Assembly (NCBI GenBank): GCA_026225215.1
Contig: JAMFSI010000039.1
Coordinates: 8,897 to 72,896, forward strand
Length of the DNA: 64,000 bases
Source of the DNA: Sphingomonas palustris
Lineage (GTDB): Bacteria > Pseudomonadota > Alphaproteobacteria > Sphingomonadales > Sphingomonadaceae
Direction: 5' to 3'
The notes under the pieces are model-generated. The model was not told the DNA's origin. It saw nothing but the letters and a program-made list of their open reading frames with translations, and did not search any database. A program made the position numbers and the translations under genes. Below are positions 1,778 to 52,849 of this stretch, piece after piece (the stretch's first letter is position 1; each line of letters begins with the position of its first letter).

Positions 1778-2236
1778 TCAGGCCTCGACGAGCCTGGAGA
1801 GTAAAGCGACGGCTCTGGATAGTTCATCCTGTTCGCCTGGCGACAAGCGCTCGGCGATCATGTCGGTCAGCCAGTCCTGGCGGGCGGCTCGGCCCTCGCG
1901 GATCTGATCGCGGCAGACATCGGTGAGCTGAAGCAGCGTCTGACGGCGATCCTCGGGATCGGCTTCGCCACGCAACATGCCGGCAGTTTCGAGCGCCGCG
2001 ATCACCGGCCCCATCGATTGCGGGCGCATGCCCTCGGCGCGGGCCAGCGCCGAAGCCGTGGCCGCGCCATCCCGGTACAATCGGATCAGCACCGCCTTTT
2101 GTGAAGACGTGAAATCGCCAAGATCGGCCTGTTCGCGCAGCCGCCGCTTGAGGGCGCGAAAAATCGCGCGCAACTGCTGAGCCAATTGGTCCGATGATGC
2201 GTATGGAGAAGCGGGCTCATCGTGAATTTGAGGCAT
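1778..2236 (-). CDS. MarR-family transcriptional regulator
   Basis: LARAEGMRPQSMGPVIAALE helix-turn-helix; DPEDRRQTLLQLT wing. Confidence 0.92.
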   Translation of the reverse strand: MPQIHDEPASPYASSDQLAQQLRAIFRALKRRLREQADLGDFTSSQKAVLIRLYRDGAATASALARAEGMRPQSMGPVIAALETAGMLRGEADPEDRRQTLLQLTDVCRDQIREGRAARQDWLTDMIAERLSPGEQDELSRAVALLSRLVEA

Positions 2237-2459: not shown

Positions 2460-2927
2460 ATGCGCTATTTTCTCGATACCGAGTTCAATGGCTTTGGCGG
2501 CGAGTTGATCTCGATTGCGCTGGTGCCGGAAGACGCCGAGCTGCCGCCGTTCTACCAAGCGATGATATGCCCTGCGCCGACCGATTGGGTCGCCGCGAAT
2601 GTCCTGCCCGTGCTGGCGACGATCCCGCTGACCCGCGAGGTGCTGGCCGACCGCTTTGCCGATTATCTGCTCGATGATGAAACGCCGCTGCTGGTCGCTG
2701 ATTGGCCGGAGGATATTGCCCACGCCGCGCAGCTGCTGGTGACGGGGCCCGGTCGCATGAAACCCGTTCGCAGCCTCCGCTTCGAACTGGTCGATCCCAA
2801 TATTATCGGTCCGGGTCTATCGGCGCTGGTGCCGCATAACGCCTGGCACGACGCGACCGCATTGCGCGCCACCGTGCTTGCGTATGAACGGAGAGTGGCC
2901 GTGAATCCCGATGTTTTTACGGGTTAG
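2460..2927 (+). CDS. DEDDh 3'-5' exonuclease (RNase AS/Rv2179c-like)
   Basis: FLDTEFNG (ExoI), WPEDIAH (ExoII), HNAWHDA (ExoIII); GAGGT RBS. Confidence 0.75.
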   Translation: MRYFLDTEFNGFGGELISIALVPEDAELPPFYQAMICPAPTDWVAANVLPVLATIPLTREVLADRFADYLLDDETPLLVADWPEDIAHAAQLLVTGPGRMKPVRSLRFELVDPNIIGPGLSALVPHNAWHDATALRATVLAYERRVAVNPDVFTG

Positions 2928-10623: not shown

Positions 10624-10650
10624 AGCGGGCAGCTGTGATCGAAATCCACT

Positions 10651-10744
10651 CCCGTCCATACTGAGCTTGTCGAAGCATTGCCTTGTTCTTCGGGTAAGAC
10701 CCAGAAAAGAAAGGCAGTGCTTCGACAAGCTCAGGACGGACGGG
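10651..10744. repeat. REP-like palindrome, type CCCGTCC..GAGCTTGTCGAAGC (copy 1 of 3)
   Basis: Inverted arms CTGAGCTTGTCGAAGCA / TGCTTCGACAAGCTCAG; also at 34793 and 37644. Confidence 0.92.
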
Positions 10745-10789
10745 AAAAGGGTCCGGGGTCGCGGTTAGCTGCTGCGCACTTTGGCATCC

Positions 10790-22183: not shown

Positions 22184-22360
22184 CTCCCCGCCCGCTTGCG
22201 GGAGGGGTTGGGGGTGGGCATCTGCGCCCGCCGCAAGCTTTGGGCTGGAGGACCTAGCGCTAACATCGCCCGAAACCTGTCGCAATAATCCGGGCGTTTG
22301 CCACCAGGGTGAACATCGAAAAGTGCCCACCCCCGGCCCCTCCCGCAAGCGGGCGGGGAG
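22184..22360. repeat. REP-like palindrome pair, type CTCCCCGCCCGCTTGCGGGAGGGG (copy 1 of 2)
   Basis: ~37-bp inverted arms around a ~100-bp spacer; second copy at 30124. Confidence 0.92.
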
Positions 22361-30123: not shown

Positions 30124-30237
30124 CTCCCCGCCCGCTTGCGGGAGGGGCTGGGGGTGGGCACTTTCTTCCTATTCTTCCTGGTTCTGCGCCTAAAAAGAAG
30201 GGCCCACCCCCGGCCCCTCCCGTAAACGGGCGGGGAG
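30124..30237. repeat. REP-like palindrome pair, type CTCCCCGCCCGCTTGCGGGAGGGG (copy 2 of 2)
   Basis: Arms nearly identical to 22184; shorter, unrelated spacer. Confidence 0.92.
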
Positions 30238-30250
30238 CAGGCAGGCTTCT

Positions 30251-31003
30251 CTACCGCATGACCTGCGCATGGCCTAACGGCCCAGCGCCTTCGCCAAAAC
30301 CCGGCGCTTTCCGCAGCGCTGTCCGGACGAACTCTCTCGCGCGTTCCACCGCTTCGGGCAGACTGGCCCCGCGCCCCAGTTCGGTGGCGACCGCGCTGGA
30401 TAGGGTGCAGCCGGTGCCGTGGGTATGGCGCGTTTCGATGCGTGGCGCGGCATAGGTATGCGGAGCTTCGCCCGGGATCGTCAGCACATCCTCGACCACC
30501 GCGCCGGGCCGGTCGCCGCCCTTGGCCAGCCATGCGCGGCCATGGGCCACCATCGCCCCGCTGCCGCCCAGCACCGCCAGTTCGCTGACATTGGGCGTGG
30601 TCAATGTGGCCAGTCGGATCAGTACGGCGAAGCTGGCGATCGTAGCGGCATCGGCGAGTTCATCGCCGCTGCTGGCGACGATCACCGGGTCGAAGACGAT
30701 CGGGACCTTGCCATCCAGCGCTGCCAGCCGCTCCGCCACGCGCGCGGCGATGGTCGCGTTGCCCAACATGCCGATCTTGATCGCATCCGCGCCGATGTCG
30801 CTCAAACAGGCGTCGATCTGCGCCAGGACCAGATCGGGCTCCAGCGCTTGTACCGCCGAAACGCCCCGCGTGTTCTGCACGGTGATCGCGGTGATCGCGG
30901 TCATCGCATAGCCGCCAAGCATGGTGACGGTCTTGATATCGGCCTGAATCCCCGCGCCGCCCGAACTATCCGAGCCGGCGATGGCCAAAATGCGCGGGAT
31001 CAT
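30251..31003 (-). CDS. thiD: hydroxymethylpyrimidine/phosphomethylpyrimidine kinase
   Basis: IAGSDSSGGAGIQADIKT, TPN..E, KGG, HTHGTGCTLSSA; start ATG 31003. Confidence 0.95.
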   Translation of the reverse strand: MIPRILAIAGSDSSGGAGIQADIKTVTMLGGYAMTAITAITVQNTRGVSAVQALEPDLVLAQIDACLSDIGADAIKIGMLGNATIAARVAERLAALDGKVPIVFDPVIVASSGDELADAATIASFAVLIRLATLTTPNVSELAVLGGSGAMVAHGRAWLAKGGDRPGAVVEDVLTIPGEAPHTYAAPRIETRHTHGTGCTLSSAVATELGRGASLPEAVERAREFVRTALRKAPGFGEGAGPLGHAQVMR

Positions 31004-31227
31004 CAGCCCTTGAAATGCCGTTCGAGCGAAGGCGGATGCTTGGCGTGGAGATGTCGCGCGCGGGTGGGTCGGTCGAGTAATTCGCCACCGCAATTGGGGC
31101 AGCGTTCGTCGAGATCCTCGGTGCAGTCGGCACAGAAGGTGCATTCCACACTGCAGATGAACGCGCCGGCATCCTGTGCCGGAAGGTCCATGCCGCAGCG
31201 TTCGCAATCGGGGCGCATCTCAAGCAT
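31003..31227 (-). CDS. DUF1272 zinc-binding small protein
   Basis: MLEMRPDCERC...ICSVECTFCADC...CPNCGGEL..RP. Confidence 0.88.
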   Translation of the reverse strand: MLEMRPDCERCGMDLPAQDAGAFICSVECTFCADCTEDLDERCPNCGGELLDRPTRARHLHAKHPPSLERHFKG

Positions 31228-31324
31228 GCCCGCATCTTGCCAGCAAATCACCCTCGGCAAAAGGGTGAAGCGTGGGGCGGTTACAAAATGGTGCAAGGTT
31301 TTCAGGGGCGAGGTGAGTCTGTGT

Positions 31325-31471
31325 CTGGTTCGAAACTCCCGTACCGGGAGTTTCCAAGTCTGTGCCGTCCCGCTCCCCCCGGGGTGGTACCACCCCGAGG
31401 GTACCTTTAACGGGTGGTTGGGCCGGGGGAGCGGGACGGCACAGACTATCCGAAACGAAGTTTCGGATCAG
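31325..31471. repeat. three-hairpin palindromic element, copy B (147 bp)
   Basis: GAAACTCCC gtacc GGGAGTTTC; central AGTCTGTGCCGTCCCGC stem; TCCGAAAC gaa GTTTCGGATCAG. Confidence 0.95.
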
Positions 31472-34792: not shown

Positions 34793-34881
34793 CCCGTCCG
34801 TGCTGAGCTTGTCGAAGCATTGCCTTGTTCTTCTACCGGAGAAAAGAAGGACAGTGCTTCGACAAGCTCAGCATGGACGGG
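34793..34881. repeat. REP-like palindrome, type CCCGTCC..GAGCTTGTCGAAGC (copy 2 of 3)
   Basis: Same arms as 10651; between convergent genes. Confidence 0.92.
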
Positions 34882-37643: not shown

Positions 37644-37734
37644 CCCGTCCGTGCTGAGCCTGTCGAAGCACTGCCTTGTTCTTCTGGCAATCTCGAAAGG
37701 AAAGGCAGTCCTTCGACGGGCTCAGGAAGGACGG
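37644..37734. repeat. REP-like palindrome, type CCCGTCC..GAGCTTGTCGAAGC (copy 3 of 3, diverged)
   Basis: CTGAGCCTGTCGAAGCA / CCTTCGACGGGCTCAG; between convergent genes. Confidence 0.88.
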
Positions 37735-37759
37735 AAGAGGGTGCCTGGTTTATGGCTCG

Positions 37760-44890: not shown

Positions 44891-45799
44891 CTAGCAGGCA
44901 CTAATCGCCGCCCCAAAGATGTTGTCGTTGTTCTGGTTGTTATACCGAAATTGAAACTCGGCAACGTAGAGGGGCAGGTATTTGGCGCTGACCTTGTGAA
45001 AGGTCCCGACGACGCCGCGCTTCACGAGGCTCCAGAAGCCCTCAATCGTCTGGGTATGGATCGCGCCGACGACGTACTGGCCCTTGGAGTGGTCAACGGA
45101 GCGATGGATATAGCGGCCAGCCAAGGCGTTGTAGCCGGGGTACTGGTCGGTGCAGATCAGCGAGACGTGATCGCTCACGGCCTCACGCACGAAGGCCCCC
45201 AGCGCTTCCGTGGTGGCCTTGTCCAGCACCAGCGCCACGACGCTTCCGCCGCGCTCCACGGCCGCAACGATCATGGTTTTGCCGGGAGTGCCGCGACCGC
45301 CCTTGTGGGCTTGGCGGCGCACCGAGACGTGTTTGTTCTTCCACGAGCCGCCCACGTAAGTCTCATCGATTTCCACGATGCCCATGAGCTTGCGGAAGTT
45401 CTCGTCGGCCAGCCCGGCGCGGACCCGGTGGCACATGTACCAAGCCGTGCGGTAAGAGCCGAAACCCATGACGCGCTGCACTTGGAGCGCGGAGACGCCC
45501 TTTTTGCTCGTCAGCATCATGTGAATGACGTGGAACCATTCGCGCAGACCTTTATTCGTGTTTTCGAAGATGGTTCCAGCGATGACAGAGAACCGATAGC
45601 CGCTGTCGGGCGCGCAGGAATAGCATTGCCACTTGTAGGCCATGGTCTTTACCGAGAAGACCTTCTCCGTTTCACCGCAACGCGGGCAGACGATTACGCC
45701 ATGCGGCCAGCGGTGAGCGATCAGATAGTCAGCGCAATCTTCGTCGGTGACGAAGGCCAGCTCAAACTCGGGGATGGTCATTTGATGGATGCGAGCCAT
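44891..45799 (-). CDS. IS1595-family DDE transposase
   Basis: Zn ribbon CPRC...CYSC; EIDETYVGG, TDQYPGY, IEGFWSLVKR, EFQFRYN. Confidence 0.96.
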   Translation of the reverse strand: MARIHQMTIPEFELAFVTDEDCADYLIAHRWPHGVIVCPRCGETEKVFSVKTMAYKWQCYSCAPDSGYRFSVIAGTIFENTNKGLREWFHVIHMMLTSKKGVSALQVQRVMGFGSYRTAWYMCHRVRAGLADENFRKLMGIVEIDETYVGGSWKNKHVSVRRQAHKGGRGTPGKTMIVAAVERGGSVVALVLDKATTEALGAFVREAVSDHVSLICTDQYPGYNALAGRYIHRSVDHSKGQYVVGAIHTQTIEGFWSLVKRGVVGTFHKVSAKYLPLYVAEFQFRYNNQNNDNIFGAAISAC

Positions 45800-45876: not shown

Positions 45877-45907
45877 GTCTGGAAATTAGCATAGCTAATT
45901 TCCAGAC
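45877..45907 (-). terminator. hairpin right after the galU stop, probable terminator
   Basis: GTCTGGAAATTAGC-ata-GCTAATTTCCAGAC, 14-bp perfect stem. Confidence 0.65.
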
Positions 45908-46999: not shown

Positions 47000-48283
47000 A
47001 TGGACAAGATTATCATACATGGTGGCGTGCGGTTGGCGGGTACCGTGCCGGTTTCGGGCGCCAAGAACGCGGCGCTCACACTGCTGCCTTGTGCGCTGCT
47101 CACCGACGAGCCGCTGACGTTGCGCAACTTGCCCCGCCTGGCCGATATCGACAGCTTCCAGCATCTGCTCAACCAGTTCGGCGTATCGACGATGATCGCC
47201 GGATCGCGGCCGGAGGATTTCGGTCGGGTCATGACGCTGGCGGCGACGCGGATCACCAGCACCGTTGCGCCCTACGAACTGGTACGCAAGATGCGCGCGT
47301 CGATCCTGGTGCTGGGGCCGATGCTGGCGCGCATGGGCGAAGCCAAGGTGTCCCTGCCCGGTGGCTGTGCGATCGGCAACCGCCCGATCGACCTCCATCT
47401 CAAGGTGCTGGAGGCGTTCGGCGCGACGATCGAATTGGCGGCGGGATACGTTCGCGCGATCGCTCCCGATGGCGGCCTGCCCGGCGGTGATTACAGTTTC
47501 CCGGTGGTATCGGTGGGGGCAACCGAAAATGCGCTGATGGCAGCGGTTCTCGCCAGCGGCACGAGCACCTTGCACAATGCCGCGCGCGAGCCCGAAATCG
47601 TCGATCTGTGCAATTTGCTGGTGGCGATGGGCGCGCAGATCGAGGGCATCGGCGGTTCCGATCTGACGATCCACGGCGTTCACCGGCTCCACGGCGCGAC
47701 TTATATGGTGATGCCCGATCGAATCGAGGCGGGCAGCTATGCTTGCGCAGCGGCGATCACCGGCGGCGAGGCGCTGCTGATGGGAGCGCGGATCGAGGAT
47801 ATGGCGGCCACCGTCCAGGCGTTGCGCGATGCCGGCGTGCTCTGCGAAGCGCGGCCCGGCGGCCTTTATGTGGCGGCGGATGGACCGATCCAGCCGGTGA
47901 CCTTGTCGACCGCACCATATCCCGGCTTCGCCACTGACATGCAGGCCCAGCTGATGGCGCTCTTGTGCCGCGCCGAAGGCGCCAGCGTGCTGACCGAGAC
48001 GATCTTCGAAAACCGCTACATGCATGTGCCCGAACTCAACCGGATGAGCGCGCATATCGAGACCAAGGGGCGCACCGCGATCGTCCACGGCGTCAAGCAG
48101 TTGATCGGCGCGGATGTCATGGCCACCGATCTGCGTGCCTCGATGAGCCTGGTGATCGCCGGGCTGGCGTCTTCGGGCGAAACCCAGGTCCACCGGCTGT
48201 ATCATCTCGATCGCGGTTACGAGCGGCTGGAGGAAAAGCTGGCGCTATTGGGCGCCGATATCGAGCGGGTAGGTGGAGATTAA
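47000..48283 (+). CDS. murA: UDP-N-acetylglucosamine 1-carboxyvinyltransferase
   Basis: [45 protein letters not shown]. Confidence 0.98.
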
Positions 48284-48287
48284 AGGC

Positions 48288-48474
48288 CTGATCCGAAACG
48301 AAGTTCAGCGAAGCGAAATCCGCGAAAGAGCGGATTTGGCTGCGCCGAACTCCGTTTCGAAGTCTGTGCCGTCCCGCTCCCCCGGCCCACCCACCCATAA
48401 GATAGTACCCTATCGGGTGGTTGGGCGGGGGGAGCGGGACGGCACAGACTATCCGAAACAAAGTTTCGGATCAG
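48288..48474. repeat. palindromic element, copy C (187 bp, longest; CTGATCCGAAAC...GTTTCGGATCAG terminal inverted repeat)
   Basis: Shares the central stem and right hairpin with A, B, D, E; extended branched left arm containing AAATCCGC..GCGGATTT. Confidence 0.95.
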
Positions 48475-48490
48475 ACACCAAAGCCCAACC

Positions 48491-48916
48491 TTATTTCGGT
48501 TGGTGGAACCCCATACAGACATCGACCGCGATGATGCGGTCGGCATCGTCGAACTCGTAGATCGAGATCGAACGGAGCGAGCTTTCGCTGCCGTCGGGCA
48601 TGACGCTGTGCTCATCGAGATCGAGATAGACGACGTTCCCCGCCTCGGTCGCGCGATACAAATACTTATTATAGACGCGGCTGGCGCCGTGCCATTCGTC
48701 CAGCATCGCGCGATAGGCCGACCAGTCTTTTTCCTCGTCGCGTTCGTTGCCGCGCCGCACGAAACGCTCGGTATCGACCAGCGGCAGCAGTGCGTCCCAG
48801 CCCTCATCGGAGGTGCGGTTGATGATCTTCGCCAGCGTGTCGCCATAAGCGATAGCGCGCTTGGTGCGGAGGCTGGTGATCTCGTCCTGCTTTGTCCAGT
48901 GACCCGCCATATTCAA
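48491..48916 (-). CDS. NTF2/SnoaL-like protein, bracketed by element copies C and D
   Basis: 141 aa; EAGNVVYLDLDE...SLRSISIYEFDDADRIIAVDV beta-sheet pattern. Confidence 0.75.
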   Translation of the reverse strand: MNMAGHWTKQDEITSLRTKRAIAYGDTLAKIINRTSDEGWDALLPLVDTERFVRRGNERDEEKDWSAYRAMLDEWHGASRVYNKYLYRATEAGNVVYLDLDEHSVMPDGSESSLRSISIYEFDDADRIIAVDVCMGFHQPK

Positions 48917-48988
48917 CTCTCCGTCTTGCTGTTTGCAAGATAGTCGTCACTGCAGCCACCGGGGGCAAGCTCTTTATACGGGTTTAGT

Positions 48989-49132
48989 CTGATCCAAATT
49001 TCGCAAAGGGCAAATTTTGGAGTCTGTGCCGTCCCGCCTCCCGGCCCAACCACCCACAGGGTACCTTTAACGGGTGATTGGACCGGGGGGGGCGGGACGG
49101 CACAGACTACCCGAAACGGAGTTTCGGATCAG
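48989..49132. repeat. three-hairpin palindromic element, copy D (144 bp)
   Basis: CTGATCCAAATTT..AAATTTTGG left hairpin, central stem, CCGAAAC gga GTTTCGGATCAG. Confidence 0.95.
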
Positions 49133-49139
49133 ACAATTC

Positions 49140-49886
49140 TCAGGGCGGGTCACTGTCAAAGCGGCCCCCGACATGCCACTCCTGCTCATAAATGATTTTC
49201 GCCGCCACCGCTTGCCCTCCGGCATCGCGCGCGGGATGAAAGCGAAAGCGTTTCTGGATGAGACGGCAAGTCAGATCGTCGAGAGTGGCATTGCCGCTGC
49301 TTTTCTGAGTCCGGCAGTCGCTCACCTTGCCCGCAGCATCGACCGAAACAAGCGCCTGGACTGTGGCCGTCAAAGGCGCCTGGCGCAGGGCTTCGGGCGT
49401 GTCCGAGGATTTGATCTCGCCGCCGACAAGCTCGGGATCGCTGCCGCCACCATCGCCATCGCCCGTTCCTCCCGCGCCCGATCCTGCGCCGCTGCCACCC
49501 GCGCCAATGCCGTTGCCCGTCGAGGCCGCCCCGGCCTCGGCGGCCATGCCCTGGCCCGGCGCGGGAGCCACCGGAAGCGGAGGGGGCGGTTTTAGCGGCG
49601 GTGTACGCGGCGCAACGAAAGGTGCCGCCAGGGCATGGCGAGCCGGCGGTGCTGCGGGTGCGGCACGCCGCGACGCTGCAGGATGTTTGGGTGGTGGAGG
49701 CGGCGGCGGGGTCCGCAAATCGAGCGAAGTCAAAGCAATTTGTGCGGCTGTGCGTAGAGCGGGCGCCGCTAATCCGTACACCAGGACCAGCGCTAGCCCG
49801 ACTTGCAACCCAGCTGCCAGAACACCACTGACGAGGCGTTTGCGACCGGCGTCGGCAGTGCTGTCGTACATCGCTGCGGCCCCCAT
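49140..49886 (-). CDS. TonB-family energy transducer-like protein
   Basis: N-terminal TM, Pro/Ala-rich linker, Gly-rich spacer, C-terminal VDAAGKVSDC...SSGNATLD..TC.LI..RFRF.PARD; start uncertain. Confidence 0.85.
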   Translation of the reverse strand: MGAAAMYDSTADAGRKRLVSGVLAAGLQVGLALVLVYGLAAPALRTAAQIALTSLDLRTPPPPPPPKHPAASRRAAPAAPPARHALAAPFVAPRTPPLKPPPPLPVAPAPGQGMAAEAGAASTGNGIGAGGSGAGSGAGGTGDGDGGGSDPELVGGEIKSSDTPEALRQAPLTATVQALVSVDAAGKVSDCRTQKSSGNATLDDLTCRLIQKRFRFHPARDAGGQAVAAKIIYEQEWHVGGRFDSDPP

Positions 49887-49921
49887 AAAACGCGGCGCGA
49901 CCGGCGCCGCGTCAGGCAGCA

Positions 49922-50212
49922 TCAGCGGTAATAGCCGCAGCGCTTGTTCTTCGAGATCGAGCGATCGATGGCGCGGCCGCCGAGCGCACCGGCAACGCCG
50001 CCAATGATCGGGCCGGCGAGCCCGCCGCCGATGATGCTGCCACCTACTACCGCACCGGCAACGCCGCCGCCGACCAAGCCAGCGGTCCCCGAGGAATGGC
50101 GGCAATGCCAATAATAGGTGCGACCGTGATACACGCGTGGCGGGTGATCGTCGGCGTGAGCGGCGATCGGCATGGCCAGCACCAGCGAGGCAAGGAGAAG
50201 GGCGCGCTTCAT
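49922..50212 (-). CDS. small exported glycine-zipper protein
   Basis: Signal peptide; GLVGGGVAGAVVGG...GGVAGALGGRAIDR. Confidence 0.8.
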   Translation of the reverse strand: MKRALLLASLVLAMPIAAHADDHPPRVYHGRTYYWHCRHSSGTAGLVGGGVAGAVVGGSIIGGGLAGPIIGGVAGALGGRAIDRSISKNKRCGYYR

Positions 50213-50617: not shown

Positions 50618-51340
50618 TCAGTACATATGTTGGCCGCCGTTGATCGACAGCGTCGAACCGGTGACGAAGCCGGCCTGTTCCGAACACAGAAATGCCACGC
50701 CGCGCGCGATCTCTTCGGCCTGGCCCAGGCGCCCGATCGGGATTTTGGCAATGATCTTGTCCAGCACCGGCTGCGGCACGGCGGAGACCATGTCGGTATC
50801 GATGTAGCCCGGCGCCACGGCATTGACGGTCACCCCGAATTTGGCGCCCTCCTGCGCCAGCGCTTTGGTGAAGCCGTGGATGCCCGACTTCGCCGCGGCA
50901 TAATTGACCTGGCCATATTGCCCGGACTGACCATTGACCGAGCCGACGTTGACCACCCGGCCCCAGCCCCTTTCGCGCATGCCCGCAAAAGTGGCCTTGA
51001 CCATGTTGAAACAGCCGCCGAGATTGATCCGCATCACCTCGTTCCAGTCATCGTAAGTCATCCGATGCAGTACGGCGTCGCGGGTGATGCCGGCATTGTT
51101 GACCACCACGTCGATCGGCCCGACTTCCGCCTCGACCTGCGCGCAACCATCGATGCAGGCCTGATGGTCGCCAACATCCCAGCAATAGGAAGGAATGCCC
51201 GTCACTTCGGTGAAGGCCTTGGCCTTTTCCGCATTGCCGCCGTAGTTTGCGGCCACGGTAAAGCCCTGGCTTCGCAAGGCAACGCTGATTGCCTCGCCGA
51301 TGCCCCGAGTGCCGCCAGTCACGATTGCGATGCGCGCCAT
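50618..51340 (-). CDS. phbB: acetoacetyl-CoA reductase
   Basis: TGGTRGIG, NNAGITRD, GQYGQVNYAAAKSG, INGGQHMY. Confidence 0.92.
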   Translation of the reverse strand: MARIAIVTGGTRGIGEAISVALRSQGFTVAANYGGNAEKAKAFTEVTGIPSYCWDVGDHQACIDGCAQVEAEVGPIDVVVNNAGITRDAVLHRMTYDDWNEVMRINLGGCFNMVKATFAGMRERGWGRVVNVGSVNGQSGQYGQVNYAAAKSGIHGFTKALAQEGAKFGVTVNAVAPGYIDTDMVSAVPQPVLDKIIAKIPIGRLGQAEEIARGVAFLCSEQAGFVTGSTLSINGGQHMY

Positions 51341-51462
51341 GTGCTCTTCCTTTCCCAACAGATTCGCTTGGTCATGCTAGGCGTGGGCAGGCCCCGCCGC
51401 AAGCTGGCCTTTCCCGATAGTCGAATGAATTGCCTCGAAAAATCGGATCAGATTCTTTGAGT

Positions 51463-51608
51463 CTAGTACGAAATCCGCGAAGAGCGGATTTCGAAGTCTG
51501 TGCCGTCCCGTTCCCCCCGGCCCAACCACCCCCAGGGTACCAGAACTGGGGGGTTGGGCCGGGGGGAACGGGACGGCACAGACTATCCGAAACAAAGTTT
51601 CGGATCAG
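51463..51608. repeat. three-hairpin palindromic element, copy E (146 bp)
   Basis: GAAATCCGC gaaga GCGGATTTC; central stem; TCCGAAAC aaa GTTTCGGATCAG. Confidence 0.95.
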
Positions 51609-51620
51609 GCGCTCAGCCAC

Positions 51621-52451
51621 TCAGAACTTGAACTGGGTTCCCACGAACACGGCTTGGGTATCGGTCTTGCCGTCTATGTCACCGTCGAGCCGGTCACGAT
51701 CGCGTTGATAGCGCAGGCCTGCGGTGACATCGAGATTGCGCGACAGGCGGTAGCTGCCGCCCAGATCCACAGTCTGCACGCCGACGCTTTCGAGGGTGCG
51801 GGGCGCGCGCCCGGCGCGGGATTGCTCATCCAGCGCGATATGCGGGGCGAGGCGCGAGGGCGTGCCACTGCCTTGGTCAGCGGCGGGTTTGAAGGTCGAC
51901 AAGTCGGGCATGTCGAGCTTGCGAATTTCCTGCGCCAGAGCAAAGGTCTGCACATTCTGGGCAAAGCCCTGATAGCCCCGCGCCATCCCCAGATTATAGG
52001 CGGCAGGCGCGATGCCGAGCGCTGTCGTACTGGTCGCCAGGGCGGTAGCAGCATGACTGCCGTGGTCGATCAAGGCGCCGCGCACGATGATCGAGCGCGC
52101 GGTCACCGGATCGACGCGGACCGCGACGGTGACTGACCGATCGGGCCTGGTCGCCAGGCCAGCCGGTGTGAAGCGAAACATCGGGCCTTTGCCGCCGGTC
52201 GGGCTGGCGGCCAGCACGCGGGCGAGCCGCGGATCGACGCTGCCGGGGCCAAAGCTGCTCACCCCCTGATTTTCGGAAAGCCCGGCCGCCGGCAAGTCGA
52301 TGCGAGTCGAAAAGGCCAGCACCGCACTGGGTAGCGCCAGGACGATCACTGCGCCCGCCATCAGCAGCGCGGGCGCGCCGGCTCCGCGCGCAGGGCTCAG
52401 GCTGCCGCGGGCAGGGGTGCCGCGAATCTCGCCTGTTCGATTGCCCGCCAT
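51621..52451 (-). CDS. exported/outer-membrane protein, unknown function
   Basis: Signal-like segment, C-terminal beta-strand pattern ending QAVFVGTQFKF (terminal Phe). Confidence 0.7.
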   Translation of the reverse strand: MAGNRTGEIRGTPARGSLSPARGAGAPALLMAGAVIVLALPSAVLAFSTRIDLPAAGLSENQGVSSFGPGSVDPRLARVLAASPTGGKGPMFRFTPAGLATRPDRSVTVAVRVDPVTARSIIVRGALIDHGSHAATALATSTTALGIAPAAYNLGMARGYQGFAQNVQTFALAQEIRKLDMPDLSTFKPAADQGSGTPSRLAPHIALDEQSRAGRAPRTLESVGVQTVDLGGSYRLSRNLDVTAGLRYQRDRDRLDGDIDGKTDTQAVFVGTQFKF

Positions 52452-52849
52452 GTGCAGTCCGTTTCCCTTGCGCGCCGTTTCGCTTGTGCAACCCCCTAGC
52501 TTGCTCAACATCGGGAGCCGCCGGAGGTTGCGATATGGGGGACCATACATCTTTTTCGGATGGTCCGGAACCCGCTAAAGTCGATTGGGCAGGCTATAAG
52601 GCGGCGGCGATATTCAGCCCCGGTTCACGCCTGGCCGGGGCAAATCCTGCGCCATGCCGTGTCTGGATTTTTCCGTCATCCTTCCCTGCATCACCCGTGC
52701 TTGGCGAACACCGGTACCGGCGGTCAGCCCACTTGCCGCGCCAGCGCGGCGGGCTATAGAGCAACGATCGCGCTTGCGCCCGGTATCCAACGCCGCCATG
52801 GCGTCGGTGCCCTCAGGGCAAACGCATAGAACAGGATCCGAACGCGACC

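Follow-up and report, generated by a model that had tools for sequence, protein, structure and literature searches.

An intergenic three-hairpin repeat of sphingomonads with a palindrome centre in both orientations and mosaic arms

Bacterial MITEs and mosaic palindromic repeats, among them Correia/NEMIS, ERIC/IRU and the BIMEs of E. coli, are non-coding elements of about 150 bp. The terminal palindromes of parvoviruses flip and flop through nicking and copying of the terminal hairpin during rolling-hairpin replication. REP sequences and REPINs are mobilized by RAYT transposases (Bertels & Rainey; PMC3116915, PMC3337134). Hairpins are also associated with small inversions and template-switch mutations (PMC6824564; PMC8794818; PMC5453318): in plastomes, "flip-flop" inversions of hairpin loops occur commonly and recurrently (PMC6824564), and template switching in hairpins produces both loop inversions and one-step compensatory changes, hairpin priming being mentioned in the same work (PMC8794818). 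Here we describe an intergenic repeat that shares features with each of these systems.

The window, by which we mean the whole 64,000-nucleotide stretch of DNA analyzed, has a G+C content of 63% and carries five copies, A to E, of an undescribed non-coding three-hairpin intergenic repeat of about 150 bp. In each copy the three hairpins are H2, which is small and variable, a core hairpin, and H1, which is conserved. The core spans about 86 to 90 nt, with arms of 36 to 37 bp enclosing a centre of 15 to 18 nt that contains AGGGTAC. The arm motif GTCTGTGCCGTCCCGCTC occurs 10 times in the window, as five inverted pairs, where 0.09 occurrences are expected by chance, and AGGGTACC occurs five times against an expectation of 0.27, four of these lying inside element centres. 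H1, which has the form ATCCGAAAC-NNN-GTTTCGGAT, is likewise found five times in the window (0.02 expected), each time directly adjoining a core, on the left in copy A and on the right in copies B to E; it was never seen without a core, either in the window (5/5) or overall (8/8). Folded as single-stranded DNA, all five copies form three hairpins, with z scores of -9 to -17 relative to shuffled sequences, and in an alignment of eight copies similarity stops at a short outer inverted repeat, GTCTGATC…GATCAGAC.

Copy A (2250-2392) has H1 at its left (2254-2274), followed by the core (2275-2366; arms 2275-2311 and 2330-2366, centre 2312-2329, TACAGGGTACCTTAACTG) and H2 (2369-2392); its DNA fold has an energy of -68.7 kcal/mol (z -17.2), and it lies between two divergent genes, a MarR-family gene (1778-2236, minus strand) and an ORF at 2460-2927 (plus strand). 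Copy B (31317-31471) runs from H2 (31332-31354) through the core (31357-31447) to H1 (31448-31468), its centre (31397-31411, GAGGGTACCTTTAAC) being set between a left inner arm at 31381-31396 and a right arm at 31412-31428, and the copy is situated upstream of thiD and downstream of a SnoaL-like gene. Copy C (48288-48476), the locus on which the sequence-only reading had focused, lies between the convergent murA (47000-48283, plus strand) and a gene for a 141-aa protein (48491-48916, minus strand); its core (48361-48450; arms 48361-48396 and 48415-48450) has the centre ATAAGATAGTACCCTATC (48397-48414) in reverse orientation and is followed by H1 (48451-48471) and then CAGAC, while its left flank (48288-48360) is compound, an H2-type hairpin sitting within a longer CGAAACGAAGTTC/GAACTCCGTTTCG hairpin. 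Copy D (48987-49134), between the 141-aa gene and a TonB-C gene (49140-50111, minus strand), begins with the outer repeat GTCTGATCC (48987-48995) and comprises an H2-like hairpin, the core (49021-49108) with the forward centre ACAGGGTACCTTTAAC (49056-49071), H1 (49109-49129) and CAGAC (49130-49134). Copy E (51461-51608) begins with GTCTAGTAC (51461-51469) and comprises H2 (51469-51493), the core (51495-51584) and H1 (51585-51605); its arms (51495-51531 and 51548-51584) carry a mirrored TT/AA variant on both sides, its centre (51532-51547, CCAGGGTACCAGAACT) is forward, its fold has an energy of -76.1 kcal/mol (z -16.8), and it lies between a phbB-like SDR gene (50618-51358, minus strand) and an ORF at 51621-52550 (minus strand). 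All copies are intergenic, and the genes that adjoin the five (MarR, ThiD, SnoaL, MurA, TonB-C and SDR) are housekeeping or metabolic genes.

As judged from its genes, the host of the window is a Novosphingobium-like sphingomonad, the window's MurA having 88-89% identity to the MurA of named Novosphingobium species. The sole public run that contains the region is X1, a root-nodule metagenome, in which the k-mer depth of the arms is about 50 to 100 times that of the flanking contigs; X1 unitigs end inside the arms, and where the arms are perfect, flipping the centre yields nothing but the same unitig read from the other strand. With Rfam 15, no match in the window reached the gathering score, and a permissive search returned sub-threshold hairpins of the miRNA-precursor type alone. 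A blastn search of a plasmid collection gave no match to the element, and in the literature we found no paper describing a sphingomonad repeat of this kind. Among MITE/REP/BIME-like palindromic repeats, a known kind, it forms a new and unannotated family from sphingomonads, and it gives the Sphingomonadales a structurally distinctive repeat family. It also has practical consequences, as short-read assemblies are broken at every copy, and a flipped centre could pass for a cluster of substitutions.

Like REPINs, the element is short, non-coding, intergenic and hairpin forming, is present in tens of copies per genome, and has inverted conserved ends around a less conserved but hairpin-preserving middle, with variants in one genome that differ in spacing and orientation. 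It differs from them in having the flanking hairpins H1 and H2, an outer inverted repeat and, in one copy, an 8- to 10-bp repeat resembling a target site duplication (TSD), and in having no GTAG-type head; furthermore, no RAYT (Y1 transposase) gene was found among the 40 ORFs scanned in the 64-kb window. Unlike REP units, in addition, the conserved arm CTGTGCCGTCCCGCTCCCCC is not self-complementary, and pairing is from arm to arm only. The likeness to MITEs and mosaic repeats extends to terminal inverted repeats, strong secondary structure, intergenic location, presence/absence differences between close relatives and mosaic combinations of sub-motifs, with arm types recombining between copies; unlike for MITEs, however, no parent insertion sequence with matching ends was identified in the 64-kb window, and a TSD was seen in one copy only. 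It is unusual among such elements that a near-perfect central palindrome of 36 bp is kept across genomes while the flanks change, and that some loci have concentric nested arms. With flip-flop hairpins the element shares the replacement of a loop by its exact reverse complement, in homoplasious fashion, one-step compensatory stem changes and stem extension, but those hairpins are single-copy sequences compared across species, whereas the substrate here is a multicopy mobile repeat, so that inversions are propagated by copying and may also have their origin in antiparallel gene conversion between copies. The parvovirus palindromes likewise have an asymmetric centre within a long palindrome and two reverse-complement orientations of roughly equal frequency; the palindromes described here, in contrast, are internal to the chromosome, with no nickase or replication intermediate in evidence.

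That the element moves is indicated by comparison with a close relative, L030, whose MurA is 96% identical to that of the window. In L030 the flanking genes are conserved and the sites of copies C and D are empty, with 4 nt between murA and the 141-aa gene and 8 nt between the 141-aa gene and the TonB-C gene. C and D are therefore recent insertions, and the element is in this respect MITE/REP-like. Loci L023 to L029 (MurA 93%) similarly lack C and D downstream of murA but have a core at the position of E. The 141-aa protein itself has no Pfam match, is 72% identical in L030 and is absent from that position in L023. The copy in L023 (8841-8997, the same in L024 and L026), with the ends GTCTGTTTGG…CCAAACAGAC, is abutted at both ends by a TSD-like direct repeat of 8 to 10 bp, (GA)CGCTCAGA; a repeat of 8 bp would fit several DDE transposase families. 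For copies A to E no convincing TSD was found, the empty L030 sites having been compared for C and D. Terminal inverted repeats (GTCTGATCC…GGATCAGAC in D) are more degenerate in B and E, and the outer repeat is missing on the H2 side of copy A. An IS1595-family (ISXO2-like) transposase gene with PF12762 and zinc-ribbon PF12760 domains lies at 44891-45799 (minus strand), within the 4-kb bin of second-lowest G+C content in the window (0.604); it was considered as a parent and rejected, no ends matching those of the element having been found for it.

The core is not confined to this host. A scan with a two-arm pattern returned two loci from a genome collection, L001 and L002, both in one Sphingomonadales MAG, and 20 from a metagenome collection; L013 proved to be a chance match to the pattern with no element present. 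A core with the centre consensus xxCAGG(G/A)TA(C)… is widespread in other Sphingomonadales genomes and metagenomes, where it sits in at least five unrelated flank contexts: H1/H2 as in the window (L010, L018 and L020), small hairpins on both sides (L005, L006/L021, L014 and L019), extra concentric arm copies (L004, L007, L012/L022 and L016), palindrome-extending flanks (L003) and an outer inverted repeat of 13 to 15 bp (L001 and L002). The nested loci (L004, 2757-3003; L007, 10603-10768; L012, 3925-4080; L016, 6394-6515) have two to three direct copies of a 26-nt outer arm on the left, mirrored on the right, around one complete core, the arm copies recurring with a period of about 40 nt and being separated by non-complementary spacers. 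More distant relatives reached through ThiD (L031 and L032) had no copy in 28 kb.

The sequence-only reading had proposed that the centre occurs in two orientations, and all of its coordinates check. On the plus strand AGGGTAC is read in A (2315-2321), B, D and E, and GTACCCT in C (48405-48411); with H1 as the reference, B, D and E therefore have a forward centre, A and C a reverse one. Among the nine copies of the H1/H2 subfamily, five are forward (B, D, E, L010 and L020) and four reverse (A, C, L018 and L023), and L018 and D provide a further inverted pair of centres. The same is seen around other flanks. L001 and L002 have identical arms, and an additional 8-nt segment on a common side marks their equal flank polarity; reverse-complementing one centre brings it to 16/17 identity with the other, compared with 8/17 in direct comparison. 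L005 and L019 have opposite centres and the same flank polarity, and are the sole pair used from the TTGC-type and nested-arm subfamilies, in which flank polarity is too symmetric or ambiguous to score. Taken on these comparisons, the centre is truly inverted with respect to asymmetric flanks, recurrently, in at least three flank subfamilies (A/C versus B/D/E, L001/L002 and L005/L019). When the central 28 nt are normalized for orientation, A, L018 and L023, which come from three genomes and are all reverse, are mutual nearest neighbours (identity 0.86 to 0.93); CCTTTAAC is common to the centres of B and D, L010 and L020 have one centre variant, and the centre of C is nearest to those of L010 and L020, weakly. 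Because A, L018 and L023 have one centre variant, orientation is partly inherited by subfamily, and one or two inversion events could suffice for all nine copies. Orientation showed no association with GC skew (14/24) or with the direction of neighbouring genes (three the same, five opposite). A link to restriction-modification through GGTACC was considered and dropped: 11 such sites lie outside the elements, where about 4 are expected, and nothing points to such a link.

The arms are mosaic, again as that reading had described for copy B. The left inner arm of B, GGGGTGGTACCACCCC, is a perfect 16-bp palindrome; it scores 13 to 17 out of 23 against the arms of A and 5 against its own right arm, and the right arm scores 11 to 19 against the arms of C, D and E. 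This A-type left arm is unpaired with the D-type right arm, and in the fold the inner stem of B is mismatched and the left arm forms a local hairpin. The inner arms thus group as {A, B-left} versus {B-right, C, D, E}. The centres group as {A, L018, L023}, {B, D} and {L010, L020}, with E and C separate, and the H2 stem variant GAAATCCGC is common to A, C and E, while B and D differ from it and keep the hairpin. Groupings by arm, centre and H2 are mutually discordant. Just outside the core, AGTC…GACT is found in all five window copies and AGCC…GGCT in other genomes of the H1/H2 type, and the sharing of one form by all copies of the window suggests homogenization within the genome.

Some changes within the palindrome are mirrored. 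L006 and L021 represent one locus sampled twice (97.1% identity across 1982 nt); in the core they differ by C>A on one arm, matched by G>T at the mirrored position, and both arms are altered alike in E (TT/AA) and in L008 (CG/CG). Double-sided changes affect 9 of 33 pairs in an alignment of 23 cores, in which the search pattern itself accounts in part, through ascertainment, for the invariance of the outer arms. At the top of the stem, the C/D/E-type sequence GGCCCA|ACCACCC is replaced in B by GGGGTGGT|ACCACCCC, the first being the reverse complement of the second, so that a new local palindrome adjoins the stem top ACCACCC; graded forms, GGCCCA+TGGT+ACCACCC and GG+TGGGTTGGT+ACCACCC, are found in contigs of the source sample. 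The local-palindrome variant is present on both arms in A and on one arm in B.

A reverse-complemented centre with arm length kept, mirrored changes and stem-extending inverted duplications are signatures of template switching, and the most economical, and most likely, cause of the flipped centres and the exchanged arms is template switching, or else recombination, acting through the long inverted arms. Template switching within the palindrome during replication would replace the centre by its own reverse complement, and would also copy a change from one arm onto the other and create new local palindromes. Gene conversion between copies could act in addition, since arms with identical readings on the two strands would let copies align in both senses. 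Copies would spread by insertion, a step partly shown by the two filled versus empty sites and the one TSD-like repeat, and the variants would be inherited as copies multiply, giving both orientations in one genome, partly tracking the centre subfamilies. Template switching and gene conversion are seen here through their end products, and the same products would be expected from either. On balance we favour, as the probable explanation, that past events, now fixed, left the two orientations and the mosaic arms as by-products of a long, multicopy, near-perfect palindrome, belonging to a MITE/REP-like repeat, and not as the output of an active phase switch. The sequence-only reading had invoked strand switching or recombination across the inverted arms, and this part of its proposal agrees with the centre inversion, the arm exchange and the mirrored changes; its miniature invertible segment, taken as an active switch, is not supported. 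As a natural multicopy system, the family lends itself to measurements, in bacteria, of template switching driven by palindromes and of antiparallel gene conversion.

An active, programmed inversion, whether by a miniature switch or by a cruciform cut and rejoined at GTAC, would have the centre flip within a population. The nearly equal numbers of forward and reverse copies in the H1/H2 subfamily, the position of GTAC 0.5 to 2 nt from the symmetry centre of the palindrome in all five window copies and the conservation of the centre motif across subfamilies are what such a process would lead one to expect. However, a decayed perfect palindrome would leave a self-complementary centre, so that a near-central GTAC is in itself no evidence of a processing site. 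No flip was seen at any of the three repeatedly sampled loci (L006/L021; L012/L022, 99.4% identical; L023/L024/L026) or between E and the L023 copy, which are possibly orthologous, and the single centre variant of the flipped A, L018 and L023, in three genomes, argues for inheritance. A Pfam scan of the window ORFs revealed no invertase, resolvase or other recombinase domain, the IS1595-family transposase with its unmatched ends being the sole mobile-element gene among the ORFs scanned, and the lack of any relation between orientation and neighbouring gene direction leaves no obvious regulatory output. The invertible segments known to us, moreover, are all far longer than 15 to 18 bp between 36-bp arms. 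Taken together these observations make active inversion very improbable and point instead to flips as rare, fixed events spread by copy multiplication. Of the two findings that the sequence-only reading had named as telling against an invertible segment, the absence of a polymorphic locus was borne out in these comparisons, whereas arm phylogeny does not predict orientation. Selection on a host function is improbable. The hairpins might be kept as parts of a structured RNA or as transcript-end stabilizers, terminators or protein-binding sites, with the orientation of the centre neutral or strand-specific, and this would accord with the nine covarying core pairs, with H2 stems that covary so that GAAATCCGC, GAAACTCCCG, GAAACGCGC and GAAAAGCGCGC all keep the hairpin, with very stable folds and with the frequent position of copies just past gene 3' ends and between convergent genes. 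Yet mirrored changes also arise from template switching without selection (PMC8794818), and the orthologous sites without copies in close relatives imply that each copy by itself is dispensable. The genes on either side of copy A are divergent, the centre is oriented with transcription in three cases and against it in five, and no Rfam family reached threshold, generic miRNA-precursor hairpins falling below it. A role as intrinsic terminator received no support, there being no T-tail and no terminator-like site called within the elements.

The combination of one core with many flanks raises another possibility, namely, that the core is a mobile unit that lands in the loops or tips of hairpins, those of its own copies among them, either way round, or that the core stays in place and the flank hairpins beside it come and go; "orientation" would then record how modules were joined, with no inversion in place. 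The same core, arms plus CAGG(G/A)TA centre, does occur in at least five unrelated flank contexts; inverted repeats also make up the flanks in L003, L001/L002 and L023, which gives the impression of a core placed within an older hairpin's loop; L004, L007, L012 and L016 have concentric arm copies, two or three in number; and in copy C the H2 hairpin lies within a longer hairpin. E and the L023 copy, in addition, are alike in position, centre variant and chromosomal orientation and differ in their flank modules, a comparison that module reshuffling explains no less well than inversion of the centre. Against this, H1 adjoins a core in all eight instances, and thus no unoccupied scaffold was seen; the 2 to 4 nt outside CTGTGCC (AGTC, AGCC, TTGC or AGAC) covary with flank type and genome, implying that core and flanks travel or are homogenized together; an outer inverted repeat and the TSD-like repeat enclose the whole composite in L023; and in the nested loci neither inner arm nor centre accompanies the outer arm copies, which are therefore no simple insertions of whole elements. 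Overall we consider modular assembly unlikely, although it is the main rival to the explanation that we favour. A stronger form of the idea, in which the core palindrome is independently mobile and enters the tips of hairpins or cruciforms, those of its own copies included, in either direction, with the near-central CAGG(G/A)TAC as the recognition or cleavage site, strikes us as improbable; if true, it would explain the flip/flop centres, the cores in unrelated hairpins and the nested arms of L004, L007, L012 and L016 alike. The conservation of CAGG(G/A)TA across divergent flank subfamilies hints at a sequence-specific function that the template-switch explanation does not need, and CAGGGTAC is a candidate binding or cleavage sequence of a putative mobilizing enzyme. 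Were the centre motif the recognition site of a hairpin-targeting enzyme, the family would be considerably more interesting.

Several other features of the window may be recorded. A perfect hairpin with a 14-bp stem, GTCTGGAAATTAGC-ATA-GCTAATTTCCAGAC, overlaps the stop codon of an NTP-transferase gene (45877-45907) and has no core; its GTCTG…CAGAC ends and GAAA… stem resemble the outer repeat and H2 of the element, and possibly it represents a solo or "empty" module. ThiD is recorded in the database as a protein of 250 aa, compared with 318 aa for the maximal ORF, so that copy B and thiD are separated by about 100 to 200 nt that do not code (31003-31320 region), and there no TPP riboswitch reached the Rfam gathering threshold. 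In k-mer depth tables covering 48268-48535 and 51082-51215 in runs X1 to X4, a segment of the phbB-like SDR gene (approximately 51082-51215) was, besides the element arms, very deep in all four metagenomes, presumably as a conserved SDR motif of many community members, unrelated to the repeat. The window also contains two further repeat families. One is palindromic and has three copies of a single polarity (10650-10745, 34793-34881 and 37644-37742), with arms of about 45 nt (CCCGTCCGTGCTGAGCTTGTCGAAGCA…), a short centre and a fixed asymmetric segment in the arms, CCTTGTTCTTC versus GAAAAGAAAGG. The other, at 22184-22360 and 30124-30237, is REPIN-like, consisting of inverted pairs of a 37- to 40-nt unit, CTCCCCGCCCGCTTGCGGGAGGGGCTGGGGGTGGGCAC, set 34 or 103 nt apart, and as a candidate for a RAYT-type REP it is to be preferred over the three-hairpin element.
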